Below are positions 9,900 to 42,774 of a stretch of DNA of 64,000 nucleotides, in pieces. The first letter of the stretch is position 1. The number at the start of each line of letters is the position of its first letter. A program made the position numbers and the translations under genes. Origin of the DNA: Pseudomonadota bacterium (GTDB taxonomy: Bacteria; Bdellovibrionota_B; Oligoflexia; Oligoflexales; CAIMVM01); assembly GCA_037142195.1 (NCBI GenBank), contig JBAXBA010000007.1, forward strand, positions 1 through 64,000. The letters run 5' to 3'. The notes beneath the pieces are model-generated. The model was not told the origin of the DNA. It saw only the letters and a list, made by a program, of their open reading frames with translations, and did no database searches.

Positions 9900-11765
9900 T
9901 TAAATGCCACTATGCCGCAACTGCCATTTTAAAAAAAATCTTGACAGATCCCTCATTAATATTGGATAAGCAAGCCTCGATTTGGGGGTATAGCTCAGTT
10001 GGTAGAGCGCTTGCATGGCATGCAAGAGGTCAGCGGTTCGACTCCGCTTACCTCCACCAAAAAGACAAGTAGTCGAACCCCGATTTTTAAAAAAAGTTGG
10101 GGTTTCTTCATTTTTGGCTTTCCCGGCCCCCGGGAGTTGAGACGTGGCCTTAGGCTCCCCCAGCGGGGCTACCTCCGGCGGCAAGGTTTCACCTTTGCTG
10201 ACCCGATAATAGATCGTGGCTGAATCGGGGTGAACTTCCACCTTAGAAACAACCTTTTTGATAATATCAGCCTTTGCTCCCTCCCCTACTGTATTTAGCC
10301 CGCGCTTAAGAGCTGCCAGAAATTCCTCATAACCGGCCAAGTCTACCGGCATGGTGCGATCATCAAGGCTCCGCTCGATTTGGCCTAGTTCAGCGCGCAG
10401 CATGTCTTTTGTTTCTTCCAGCTTCTTCAATTGGTTAAAAATCGGCGTTGGGGATACGCCTTTAGGAATTGAAGCTAAATGCTCGGCGAGAGCCTCAGTT
10501 TGGGAATCAATTTGCGTCATTTTTGAAATCAGTCGCTCCAAATCCTGCTCGTGGTCTATCTGTCCATGCAGGCGTTTGGCTTCGTCTACGATTCGCTTTG
10601 CGCGGAGGGGATCACTGAGTAGACCTACTACCTTTTCCCAGACCAATGGCTCAATAATGTTGGCGAGGACGCGGACAGGCCCGGTGCATTGGTACTTGGC
10701 ATCATCATTTAACTCTGCACGCACAGCGGTCCATCCGTGCGCGTAGTAGGGAATCTTAAGTTTTCGTCCGTGTGCCGATTTGCCTGGCATCCTGCCCCGG
10801 CAGGTACCACAAGCAACAAGTCCCGAAAGTAGAAAGGGAAAGCGAGAATTCATCGCCGTTTTGTTACATCGATGATTTTTTTTGAGAAGAGCCTGTGCTT
10901 TATGAAAAGTATCCTCATCGATGATTGGGTCCCAGCATGCTTTTGAGTTTTGCTCAACTCCATTAACACTAAACGTCCGAACTCCAATAAAAGTGGGATT
11001 AGTCAAAAGCCTATACATGTTGCCGACGGTAAAATAGCCAAGGCGCGGACTAGAGCCGCCTGCTGCACGCTTCTTTGGAATAGGATACTTCTTTGCATTG
11101 AGTTTTTTGCCTGCAGCGGAGACGACTCCCTCTTCAAGAAACGTTTTGAACATATCGCGAACAATAGCTGCTTCCTCTTCAACCACGAGCAGATAGCCCT
11201 TTTTATCAGAGTCTAATCTGTAGCCGAGTGGCACAGAACCACCATTGAATAGACCCCGCTCTGCTCTGGCTTGAAAGTTGGCTGATATACGTTCTGATGT
11301 TTGGCGGCGCTCAAACTGAGCAATGTTAGCGATTGTGTACATCACCATTTCACCGGCAGCAGAAGTGGTGTCAAACTGCTCCCGGAGACTTAAGAATTCA
11401 CAGCGATGCTCACGCATCAATTCCCACATGTCTGAGAAATCTTTGATAGAACGCGAAAGCCGCGATAACTCCGTCACCATAACAAGGGTGATTTCGCGGC
11501 TAATAATGGCCTTAAGTAATCGCTGTAACTCTGGTCGATTGGTGTCTTTACCAGATTTGGCGCGGTCAACAAAAACCTTTGAAACCTCGCCAAACGGTCT
11601 TTCATAATTCTTCAGGTCCACATGGGCGCGCAGCCGCTGTTCTTGGCTTTTGATCGACCCTTCCGGGTTACTTGCCTGTTCTTCAGTCGACACGCGAATA
11701 TATATGCCGATCTTATGCAGCGGTTGTGTGTCTTTGATGGGTTTTGACTTAAGTAAAGATTTCAT
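9900..11765 (-). CDS. Large serine recombinase (integrase); last 49 codons come from antisense tRNA and host DNA
   Basis: YIRVST catalytic Ser, RPELQRL, SRLSR, AQFERRQTSER, recombinase domain, CGTC Zn ribbon and coiled coil. Confidence 0.95.
   Translation of the reverse strand: MKSLLKSKPIKDTQPLHKIGIYIRVSTEEQASNPEGSIKSQEQRLRAHVDLKNYERPFGEVSKVFVDRAKSGKDTNRPELQRLLKAIISREITLVMVTELSRLSRSIKDFSDMWELMREHRCEFLSLREQFDTTSAAGEMVMYTIANIAQFERRQTSERISANFQARAERGLFNGGSVPLGYRLDSDKKGYLLVVEEEAAIVRDMFKTFLEEGVVSAAGKKLNAKKYPIPKKRAAGGSSPRLGYFTVGNMYRLLTNPTFIGVRTFSVNGVEQNSKACWDPIIDEDTFHKAQALLKKNHRCNKTAMNSRFPFLLSGLVACGTCRGRMPGKSAHGRKLKIPYYAHGWTAVRAELNDDAKYQCTGPVRVLANIIEPLVWEKVVGLLSDPLRAKRIVDEAKRLHGQIDHEQDLERLISKMTQIDSQTEALAEHLASIPKGVSPTPIFNQLKKLEETKDMLRAELGQIERSLDDRTMPVDLAGYEEFLAALKRGLNTVGEGAKADIIKKVVSKVEVHPDSATIYYRVSKGETLPPEVAPLGEPKATSQLPGAGKAKNEETPTFFKNRGSTTCLFGGGKRSRTADLLHAMQALYQLSYTPKSRLAYPILMRDLSRFFLKWQLRHSGI
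9941..9970 (+). promoter_or_regulatory. Probable sigma70 promoter of tRNA-Ala
   Basis: Perfect TTGACA at 9941-9946 preceded by an A-tract; weak -10 (GATAAG) before the tRNA. Confidence 0.45.
9984..10059 (+). tRNA. tRNA-Ala(GGC)
   Basis: 76 nt; acceptor stem GGGGGTA/TACCTCC with G3:U70, anticodon GGC, GGTTCGACT T-loop, encoded CCA. Confidence 0.98.
10035..10081 (+). repeat. attL (tRNA T-arm, core 10050-10059, P' arm AGTAGTCGAACCCC 10068-10081)
   Basis: Core repeated at 42765-42774; arm is the exact reverse complement of 42743-42756. Confidence 0.9.
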
Positions 11766-12019
11766 GTCGGAACTCCTTATAACAATTGTTGGAGTCCCGG
11801 CTGGGTGGAATGGGATAAATCCCTTTTATGAGAAGCGGTCTGGCAAAGAGAAGCATACAGAATTCGCGCGATATCTGCAAGCTGATGATCGCTTTCGGTT
11901 GGTTCAATGTGCTCAAGGACCGAGCGGATGTTAGAGATTTCCCAGCGCGGCATAAGTACTCCTTAAAAAAAGGGAATCTGCCCCGGGAAACCGGAGCAGA
12001 CGCCCAAAGGCTCGGTACG

Positions 12020-12445
12020 TCAAGCGATAGCTTCGGGGCCGTTGGCAGTAGTCGCTACTTTTGCGGCGACTTTTGGTTTTGTTGTCCTTTTGGGATTCGG
12101 CGTTTTTTGAGGACCACCCTTTGCTAAGATTTCCGCCAGACTAACATTCTCTCCCCGCGCCTTCTTCAAGCGTAGTTCATGGATCGCGTCTTTCAAAAAC
12201 CGTTCTTCATCATAAAATTGCTCCGCGATTGTCTTGATGTCAGCGCTTGGCAATTCGTTGGGATAAGAGCTGATGAGCCATTCAATCATATTGTTTCTGG
12301 TTAGCCGGACACCGCGATGTCTATCCGTGATGTGCTTCATCCATGCATCTAGTTTTGAAATAAGCTCAGGAGGCAGCGTTACACGATCCGGATGTCGAAT
12401 CTTTGACTTTTCTTGCGGGTGCTTTTCCATTAGTTGGTCGTCCAT
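12020..12445 (-). CDS. Hypothetical protein, possible ribbon-helix-helix DNA-binding protein
   Basis: RVTLPPELISKLDAW...LTRNNMIEWLI pattern; Lys-rich tail; overlaps upstream gene. Confidence 0.55.
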   Translation of the reverse strand: MDDQLMEKHPQEKSKIRHPDRVTLPPELISKLDAWMKHITDRHRGVRLTRNNMIEWLISSYPNELPSADIKTIAEQFYDEERFLKDAIHELRLKKARGENVSLAEILAKGGPQKTPNPKRTTKPKVAAKVATTANGPEAIA

Positions 12446-12825
12446 TTTCCAGTGTCCTCAATAATAAATATTCTGTGTCCTTGGATGTAACGGTCACCTT
12501 CAATTTTGTCAGGCACCCAAATAGACCTGTAGCGTGGCTCAGAAATCTTTGGATCTTTTGGCTTTTCGGTTCCGTTGGTGGTCGCTTGTCGCAATCCTTC
12601 TTTTTGTTGGTAGTCCTTGTGTCCTAGATAGCCGAATGCTGCACCGAGGCCGGCACCAATGACGGCGCCAATCGCAGTTCCTCTAGGACTGTGCTCCGTC
12701 GAGAGATTTCCCATGCTGCCGCCAGCTGCAGCTCCCATACTCGCCCCAAGGAGCATGCTATCTCTAGCGGTAGCGCAACCTACGAAGAGGAATGGAATGA
12801 TAATGAGTGATATAAATAATTTCAT
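12430..12825 (-). CDS. Glycine-zipper lipoprotein (candidate VirB7/TraV-like)
   Basis: Lipobox FVGC, Gly-zipper, C-terminal YRSIWVPDKIEGDRYIQGH resembling the TraV tail. Confidence 0.65.
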   Translation of the reverse strand: MKLFISLIIIPFLFVGCATARDSMLLGASMGAAAGGSMGNLSTEHSPRGTAIGAVIGAGLGAAFGYLGHKDYQQKEGLRQATTNGTEKPKDPKISEPRYRSIWVPDKIEGDRYIQGHRIFIIEDTGKWTTN

Positions 12826-12919
12826 ATAAGGTCCTTAAAGTGGAATGATGAATGGAGTCGTGTTTGGAATGGGCTCCGTATAGGAGCCTATCGGGAATTG
12901 AGTCGATTTCGCAGGGGCG

Positions 12920-42451: not shown

Positions 42452-42473
42452 CATACTATTTGAAAATCTAGTC

Positions 42474-42647
42474 CTACATCCCTAGCCGGGCATTCAGCAT
42501 CTTCAAGCTGACCAGTCCTTTTGGTAAGGACTGACAGGCCTTCTTGGCGGCTTTTTCCATGCAGGCTGCTGAAATTGCTCCAGCCGTTACTAGGACGACC
42601 AGACCTTTGAGAATCGCACCATAGAGAGACGTGATACTTCGAATCAT
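42474..42647 (-). CDS. Small 57-aa membrane-associated protein at the element's right end (not in ORF track)
   Basis: MIRSITSLYGAILKGLVVLVTAGAISAACMEKAAKK...; lies just downstream of the integrase in the circular form. Confidence 0.45.
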   Translation of the reverse strand: MIRSITSLYGAILKGLVVLVTAGAISAACMEKAAKKACQSLPKGLVSLKMLNARLGM

Positions 42648-42742
42648 GCGTAAACCACCGTTTTTTCTTGCTTTTCATCGATTGCCAGACCGACTACTCG
42701 TCTATTTTTTCCACCGAACCAGGCACGTTTCCCCCACTTGAA

Positions 42743-42774
42743 GGGGTTCGACTACTATAGCGTCACCTCCACCA
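42743..42774 (+). repeat. attR (P arm GGGGTTCGACTACT plus core ACCTCCACCA)
   Basis: Core identical to the last 10 nt of the tRNA; arm is an inverted copy of 10068-10081 at identical 8-nt spacing. Confidence 0.9.

Follow-up and report, generated by a model that had tools for sequence, protein, structure and literature searches.

The stretch analysed here, hereafter the window, comprises the first 64,000 nucleotides (forward strand) of contig JBAXBA010000007.1 in assembly GCA_037142195.1, from a Pseudomonadota bacterium of the order Oligoflexales. The sole tRNA gene in the window is a tRNA-Ala(GGC) at 9984-10059 on the plus strand (ARAGORN), and at its 3' end lies an element of 32.7 kb (10060-42764) that carries a large serine recombinase gene at its left end, followed by a conjugation module, a two-component system and defence genes (Table 1). 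The tRNA gene is intact, as the initial annotation of the window had assumed, with an Rfam tRNA score of 69.1 bits against a gathering score of 29. In the element, an integrase gene and attachment (att) sites are combined with type IV secretion genes and the gene of a coupling ATPase. The transfer genes include a TraC/VirB4-like ATPase (Pfam, 2.3e-40), TrbI (5.5e-14) and FtsK_SpoIIIE (1.9e-25), with weak matches to CagX and TrbC; the candidate relaxase gives a weak Replic_Relax match under the cut-off (19.8 versus 25.3 bits). By its predicted genes and its ends, the element is an integrative conjugative element, apparently placed by its own large serine recombinase, and we regard the ends and the enzyme type as secure.

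Table 1 Features at the tRNA-Ala(GGC) locus, in window coordinates
Feature	Position	Strand	Basis
Large serine recombinase gene; conserved part 10146-11765	9900..11765	-	Pfam Resolvase, Recombinase, Zn_ribbon_recom; AlphaFold2 (AF2); Foldseek
tRNA-Ala(GGC), 3' part = putative host (B) half-site	9984..10059	+	ARAGORN, Rfam
T-arm box GGTTCGACT in the tRNA, half-site positions 12-20	10035..10043	+	Exact match search
Left 10-bp core copy; putative crossover CC at 10054-10055	10050..10059	+	Direct repeat, arm symmetry
Element arm P': 8-nt inner part and 14-mer 10068-10081 with inverted T-arm box, positions 17-25	10060..10081	+	
Conjugation module: weak Replic_Relax, FtsK-like coupling ATPase, TrbI, CagX, VirB4/TraC-like ATPase, TrbC-like pilin	12920..21853	-	Pfam, NCBIfam
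DDE transposase gene in three open frames (broken)	23971..25358	-	Pfam
Cargo: sigma-54 response regulator, histidine kinase and neighbours (two-component system)	27002..31656	-	Pfam
Defence cargo: type I restriction-modification hsdR, hsdS, hsdM; PrrC-like gene; PDC-S39 candidate	32070..40995	+	Pfam, PADLOC
Element arm P: 14-mer 42743-42756 with T-arm box at positions 17-25, and 8-nt inner part	42743..42764	+	
Right 10-bp core copy	42765..42774	+	Direct repeat
Right flank unit: P'-like element-type arm, left end of resident integrase-less island	42775..42885	+	
Small island: DUF2442, DUF4160, Fic-domain gene, short frame 43910-44158; ends in core-like site 45890-45895	42886..45895	.	

Attachment-site geometry and the recombinase

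The final 10 nt of the tRNA gene (10050-10059) are present again at 42765-42774 as a direct repeat. The 14-mer at 10068-10081 is the exact reverse complement of the 14-mer at 42743-42756, and 8 nt lie between each 14-mer and its copy of the repeat. Joining the two ends of the element gives a 54-bp site with two-fold symmetry, arranged as 14+8+10+8+14, in which perfect 14-bp arms are equidistant from the 10-bp core; this is the layout that had been drawn in the initial annotation. Symmetry of the 14-mers places the centre at the CC of 10054-10055, corresponding to tRNA positions 71-72, and the site is thus of the kind used by large serine recombinases, short and symmetric around a non-palindromic central dinucleotide. 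Two exact matches to the 14-mer and one with two mismatches were found in the window, compared with a mean of 0.17 matches after shuffling; at least three matches were seen in 0/100 shuffles.

The 9-mer GGTTCGACT occurs exactly three times in the 64-kb window, once in the T-arm of the tRNA gene (10035-10043), once inverted in the left element arm P' (10071-10079, minus strand) and once in the right element arm P (42745-42753, plus strand). The mean in shuffled sequences was 0.33, and three copies were seen in none of 100 shuffles. The motif had been called identical to the T-loop of the tRNA; the identity of the 9-mer holds, but the motif really consists of the last two bases of the T-stem and the 7-nt loop, and we refer to it as the T-arm box. 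The box is 6 nt from the repeat in the tRNA but 11 nt from it in each element arm, the same spacing as first annotated for the P arm and the tRNA. Relative to the symmetry centre, the tRNA has the box at half-site positions 12-20 and the two element arms have it at 17-25, i.e., 5 bp farther out. The element ends, the symmetric site and the geometry of the T-arm box are therefore confirmed as observations.

A shift of this size is already in print for the Listeria A118 integrase (LI), for which the accessible part of that paper gives attP half-sites with the 9-bp zinc-ribbon motif at bp 16-24 and attB half-sites with the motif at bp 11-19 (Rutherford 2013, PMC3783163). The 5-bp rule invoked at the outset is thus a published one, and the tRNA arm and the element arms of the window match it. 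The motif 5 bp nearer the centre is seen in the tRNA half-site, and the right half-site next to the element has the box in the outer register.

The recombinase gene encodes Resolvase (PF00239, 1.6e-30), Recombinase (PF07508, 1.2e-13) and Zn_ribbon_recom (PF13408, 1e-06) domains, in line with its first description as a large serine integrase. Arg24 and Ser26 are invariant in 14 relatives. An AF2 model (mean predicted local distance difference test, pLDDT, 74; predicted template modelling score, pTM, 0.37) contains, in addition to the catalytic domain and the long helix E, a recombinase domain made of helices and a zinc ribbon split by two long helices, with strands at 317-367, helices at 405-431 and 440-468, and strands at 506-527. 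Pfam and the model together thus give the order expected for a large serine recombinase, a Recombinase domain followed by a zinc ribbon with an inserted coiled coil. The N-terminal resolvase-type catalytic domain matched that of TP901-1 with a TM score of 0.90 and a root-mean-square deviation of 2.0 (Foldseek, AF2 model), and the full-length matches included the SPbeta integrase (4e-20), Bxb1 (9e-19) and phiC31 (2e-17). The top NCBIfam model is CcrB (NF047343; 1e-40, residues 17-509), and since its 139.9 bits are far under the cut-off of 900, the enzyme is best assigned as CcrB-like and not as a Ccr protein. Neither a second Resolvase-domain frame nor a tyrosine recombinase was found with Pfam among 31 element frames picked from the list of frames of at least 80 aa.

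The recombinase frame does not stop at the element boundary but continues through P', the core and the antisense strand of the tRNA gene, giving 621 aa in the integrated form and 592 aa across the joined ends. The C-terminal tail of the protein (window 9900-10145) accordingly differs between the two forms.

Related loci and the ends of the element

Relatives of the recombinase at E 1e-40 or better were present in 16/95 genomes of the same order. A convergent tRNA or transfer-messenger RNA (tmRNA) gene directly follows the integrase in 14/16 loci other than the window itself, the exceptions being L037 and L045, and the 14 targets are diverse: Arg-CCT and Asn-GTT (three each), Ala-GGC (two), and Arg-CCG, Ala-CGC, Leu-TAG, Pro-TGG, Pro-GGG and tmRNA (one each). 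In metagenome contigs, 512 relatives were detected with a profile, and the best 80 were kept. Of these, 48 were informative, having at least 260 nt after the conserved end, and 40 of the 48 have a convergent tRNA gene within 500 nt, the targets being Val, Leu, Arg, Ala, Met, His and Glu tRNAs. Judged from these sequences, the recombinase belongs to a large CcrB-like clade whose members adjoin many different tRNA and tmRNA gene ends in a common geometry.

To describe this geometry, 53 tRNA loci including the window were pooled and aligned on the T-loop of the tRNA, giving 45 distinct junctions; locus L078, where the nearest convergent tRNA has no canonical T-loop string, was dropped. CGAAC begins exactly 15 nt past the CCA-equivalent end in 39/45 junctions and occurs only once at any other offset within the 30 nt scanned. 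The integrase frame ends inside the antisense strand of the tRNA in 42/45 junctions, and in 36 of those 42 the stop is a multiple of three from the tRNA end.

That 10060 and 42764 are the true ends of the element is indicated by three comparisons of sequences, to the last of which we give little weight. First, the genome of a sister species in the same genus (G001), whose flanking VKOR/DsbA gene is 96% identical to that of the window, has the same tRNA gene without the element, and a homologue of window 42775-42885 follows directly after the tRNA; an empty site, which the initial annotation had named as a check, is thus available. Second, on contig C16 of the same assembly (C16:1068-1295, locus L002), the right end, the core and the left end are contiguous at ~87% identity, and therefore the two element arms do occur joined around this core. 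This copy has one extra base and no integrase beside it, and the simplest account of it is a junction of two decayed elements in tandem. Third, a contig of genome G078 and a public record of a metagenome-assembled genome (L012, L040) have the element's first 766 nt, 100% identical, after the same tRNA and with another 5' flank. Because an assembly chimera across the identical tRNA is possible, G078 is a weak case for a second host of the element.

Four of 21 sequencing runs, all of them in the form of Logan contigs, were also compared with window 9000-11800. The left junction is bridged by an 82-nt contig of the likely source run; another contig, of 1150 nt, fits the joined-ends copy of C16. 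No excision joint or loose end was found among these contigs, which cannot show absence. The flank unit and the junction regions had no match to Rfam families.

We also searched for the right-end site of relatives that carry an integrase, covering up to 36.9 kb per locus for repeats of the tRNA tail, inverted copies of the P' arm and the box-spacer-core pattern. None was recovered beside five related integrases, and the only site found was that of the window itself. Contigs of G042 and some others end too soon.

Islands to the right of the element

The stretch that follows the element, 42775-42885, is itself related to it: this flank unit aligns with the left end of the element and has CGAAC at the distance from the core that is typical of P', i.e., in the outer (attP) register. 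The junction 42743-42800 has the form of an element site, with two outer-register arms. The unit is repeated at 45896-46005 and on contigs C172 and C44. A core-like CCACCA precedes it at 45890 in the window and on C172; the C44 copy is preceded by a diverged form and has a deletion. Between the two copies in the window lies a small island, whose short frame at 43910-44158 is on a stretch homologous to frames of the sister species with a helix-turn-helix (HTH) and a partial Recombinase domain. Direct repeats of ~87 nt are present at 42882-42968 and 45804-45890.

In the sister species, the corresponding locus (L055:1844-14390) has four sites of this type after the tRNA within 12.3 kb, all centred on the same CC. 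Site 1 is the tRNA followed by a P'-type arm. Site 2 begins with an arm that has its box in the outer register and pairs with the site 1 arm as a perfect 17-bp inverted repeat, and continues into a P' arm almost like that of the element. In site 3, the last 22 nt of the P arm before the core are identical to window 42743-42764, the whole stretch being 81% identical with the same 10-bp core, and site 4 resembles site 2. Besides the arms of the window, two arms of this array are thus in the attP register, one of them in the 17-bp inverted repeat described for site 2, and an island of 3.9 kb is bounded on either side by the same arm types. The intervening islands contain a peptidase, an IS66-type transposase, an endonuclease and short HTH plus partial-Recombinase frames. 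No integrase of this CcrB-like clade was found in G001 at E 1e-40 or better. The islands of the sister species are a tandem, integrase-less series with arms of one kind at their ends, and they agree with the cis-mobilizable elements and accretion described, in the text available, for Dehalococcoides (PMC3146451).

Short frames at window 43864-44150 and at L055:5197-5616 and 13539-14333 combine a resolvase-type HTH with only half of a Recombinase domain, its first half, and lack a catalytic domain. They sit at the right ends of small islands and may be decayed recombinase genes or an accessory DNA-binding protein.

The site that the element entered was thus made up of the tRNA half and a resident island's P'-type arm, and the element is the first in a tandem array. 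The initial annotation had considered both attP and attB reconstructable. The symmetric element site stands; the "attB" is a composite, in which the right half (42775 onward) is the arm of the resident island, and since this element-type arm has its box in the attP register, the attB rule holds for the tRNA half only. Of 13 genomes of the order compared downstream of tRNA-Ala(GGC), 3 have P'-type arms and 9 share no right-arm motif; the remaining flank (L017), following a variant tRNA without an encoded CCA, was left unclassed.

As to the box itself in these tRNAs, the exact 9-mer is present in the window, in the G078 contig and in 7/13 of the tRNA-Ala(GGC) genes of the order. The sister-species tRNA-Ala(GGC) (L014:2837-2912, compared with window 9984-10059) has a single changed letter in the box, within its T-loop part.

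Reading of the tRNA end, alternatives and known systems

We propose that one recombinase dimer would sit on the element site, its zinc-ribbon domains contacting the T-arm-like box in each arm (positions 17-25), and that a second dimer would bind the end of the tRNA gene, where the box at positions 12-20 would come from the T-arm of the tRNA itself. Strand exchange would take place at the CC of tRNA positions 71-72. The element would re-supply the last 5 nt of the tRNA, which would stay whole, and the right-hand host half-site would matter little; here it was the arm of the island resident at the tRNA. An integrative conjugative element at 10060-42764 that was inserted by its own recombinase, with the T-arm box as the zinc-ribbon motif, is in our opinion the best explanation of the locus and more probable than not. 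Reading of the T-arm by the recombinase is in itself plausible, and somewhat favoured, by comparison of the sites, and it is strengthened by the fixed geometry across the family.

A number of observations weigh against this explanation. The right half of the pre-insertion site has its box in the attP and not the attB register, and by analogy with the canonical model the pre-insertion site resembles an attL, which should not pair with attP. The pristine tRNA-Ala(GGC) flanks of nine other genomes have no right-arm motif in common, and a right-end site was recovered for no relative carrying an integrase. G078 has only the 766 nt, at a contig end, which may come from an assembly chimera across the identical tRNA. 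The relative L011, 83% identical, abuts a non-tRNA arm that keeps 6/9 letters of the box, in the inner (attB) register. The box is nearly invariant in tRNAs and therefore no covariation can be observed. Finally, the box in the P' arm is also coding sequence of the integrase frame, and coding constraint is a confounder since this frame is constant relative to the tRNA end in 36/42 loci.

Some of these points would suit an integrase that reads the acceptor-stem part and the core, with the boundaries and the recombinase as stated and the box being a leftover of a tRNA fragment or coding sequence for the integrase tail. The box of P' is indeed translated, its frame is held in those 36/42 loci, the host-side arm of L011 tolerates three changes in the nine letters, and covariation that could separate the two readings cannot be seen. 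However, CGAAC keeps one offset in 39/45 junctions across integrases that are down to ~30% identical, and the letters conserved at the junction include two third-codon positions (by inspection of the listing, untabulated), which selection at the protein level alone would leave free. Because of these third-codon positions, a DNA-level constraint on the box is favoured. Descent from a tRNA fragment, in turn, leaves unexplained that the opposite arm carries the box as an inverted copy and that the box is offset by exactly 5 bp in the two arms. We consider reading of the acceptor stem and core alone doubtful, and reading of the T-arm box the better account.

It is less probable still that the mobile unit is not 10060-42764 alone, the element being either part of a composite with the right-hand islands, moved via outer sites, or fixed and no longer excising. 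The similar tandem sites at 42769 and 45890 in the window and the four in G001, together with the element-site form of the junction 42743-42800, would allow such a composite, but every element gene tested is open except one transposase, and the 3.9-kb island of G001 with the same arm types at both ends shows that 10060 and 42764 are the ends of one type of unit. Insertion by a different enzyme, e.g., a tyrosine integrase or a transposase, with the serine recombinase as a passenger, is very improbable, for although tRNA ends are the classic target of tyrosine integrases (PMC4383910, in the part accessible), no tyrosine-recombinase domain was found in the 31 scanned element frames, the only transposase is broken, and the recombinase gene abuts the junction in 14/16 and 40/48 related loci.

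If the element is indeed inserted by recognition of the T-arm box, a more general proposal, which we make tentatively and hold less likely than the explanation of the window, is that a widespread CcrB-like clade came to use the universal T-arm box of tRNAs for the zinc-ribbon motif in the host half-site. Landing sites could then arise at any tRNA or tmRNA end by retuning the inner acceptor-stem contacts only, the right half-site would be almost free, and tandem integrase-less arrays would be built and reshuffled. If true, such a system would amount to a platform for gene capture that relies on serine instead of tyrosine chemistry.

The LI model shares with the window a short symmetric element site, the same domain order and a motif shift of 5 bp (here 17-25 versus 12-20), according to the text available (PMC3783163). 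The sequence relation is distant; SPbeta was matched at 8e-6 in a PDB sequence search, and the LI C-terminal domain (4kis) by fold only (E 1.1e-14). Unlike the LI system as described in that text, the target here is a tRNA gene and not a protein gene, one host half-site obeys the rule, and the activity is putative.

By description, the locus also resembles the ssrA islands of Dehalococcoides, which have a CcrB-like serine recombinase, DsiB, whose gene embeds attL, and which form tandem islands (McMurdie 2011, PMC3146451, accessible part). As in these islands, a serine recombinase of ~540 aa lies beside attL at the 3' end of a tmRNA or tRNA-like gene with the repeat embedded in its gene, and some of the tandem islands lack an integrase (cis-mobilizable elements). 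Overlap of the integrase gene with attL at a tRNA-like 3' end and tandem islands are both found in the window. The best NCBIfam match is CcrB and one relative of the window recombinase is at a tmRNA gene. In that account, by contrast, the repeat is 20 bp long and begins in the T-loop, whereas here it is 10 bp long and begins in the acceptor strand; the DsiA small serine recombinase and the six-gene module were not found in the 31 scanned element frames; and those islands are mobilizable, whereas the element here has a type IV secretion set.

Serine recombinases at tRNA genes had been presented at the outset as exceptions to a rule that favours tyrosine integrases. At tRNA or tmRNA genes they are rare, but cases had been reported (PMC3146451, PMC3218068, PMC4471427, each in the text accessible). 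Eight serine recombinases of Mycobacterium actinomycete integrative and conjugative elements at a tRNA-Leu gene were called "rare" (Ghinet 2011, PMC3218068); by that description these are Recombinase-domain enzymes of conjugative elements with predicted integration in tRNA genes, as here, but they belong to actinomycete elements with another transfer system, and the accessible part of the report describes neither att geometry nor reading of the T-arm. The filamentous Ralstonia phages phiRSM integrate in tRNA-Ser by a serine recombinase, with activity shown by authors cited in the available text (PMC4471427), but their enzyme is of the small resolvase/invertase type without recombinase and zinc-ribbon domains and uses a 13-nt site. 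The tRNA islands of tyrosine integrases are alike in targeting the tRNA 3' end, in regenerating the gene from element sequence and in forming tandem arrays; they differ in enzyme family and chemistry, no tyrosine recombinase being among the 31 scanned frames. SCC (staphylococcal cassette chromosome) elements share CcrB as the top NCBIfam model and insertion at the 3' end of a conserved gene; the 139.9 bits against a cut-off of 900, the lack of a CcrA partner in the 31 scanned frames, and the target and host set them apart. A full-text literature search, with most subscription journals outside its reach, returned no description of the T-arm box as a zinc-ribbon motif of a serine integrase, or of this clade. 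No serine-integrase case at a tRNA was found in the accessible parts of PMC3091744, PMC8092301, PMC12561888 and PMC12884075.

If the host half-site is the end of a tRNA gene, natural landing sites would be present in almost any organism, with a key motif that is nearly universal, and insertion would take place without harm to the gene. Serine integrases are preferred tools for insertion of large DNA, and each needs a landing site that has to be installed first. The window would also offer a natural test of the 5-bp register rule for attP and attB, with one attB-type arm and the other arm effectively free. The finding also corrects a textbook asymmetry, tRNA ends having for long been considered to be the territory of tyrosine integrases (PMC4383910, accessible part).

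The remaining content of the element consists of transfer genes, a two-component system and a defence block and is not phage-like, and a phage identity was rejected on these grounds. In the defence block, a PrrC-like gene (36219-37295; PADLOC, 6.3e-100) lies between hsdS and hsdM, and a PDC-S39 candidate defence gene (39175-40995; PADLOC, 8.2e-86) follows the type I restriction-modification operon.

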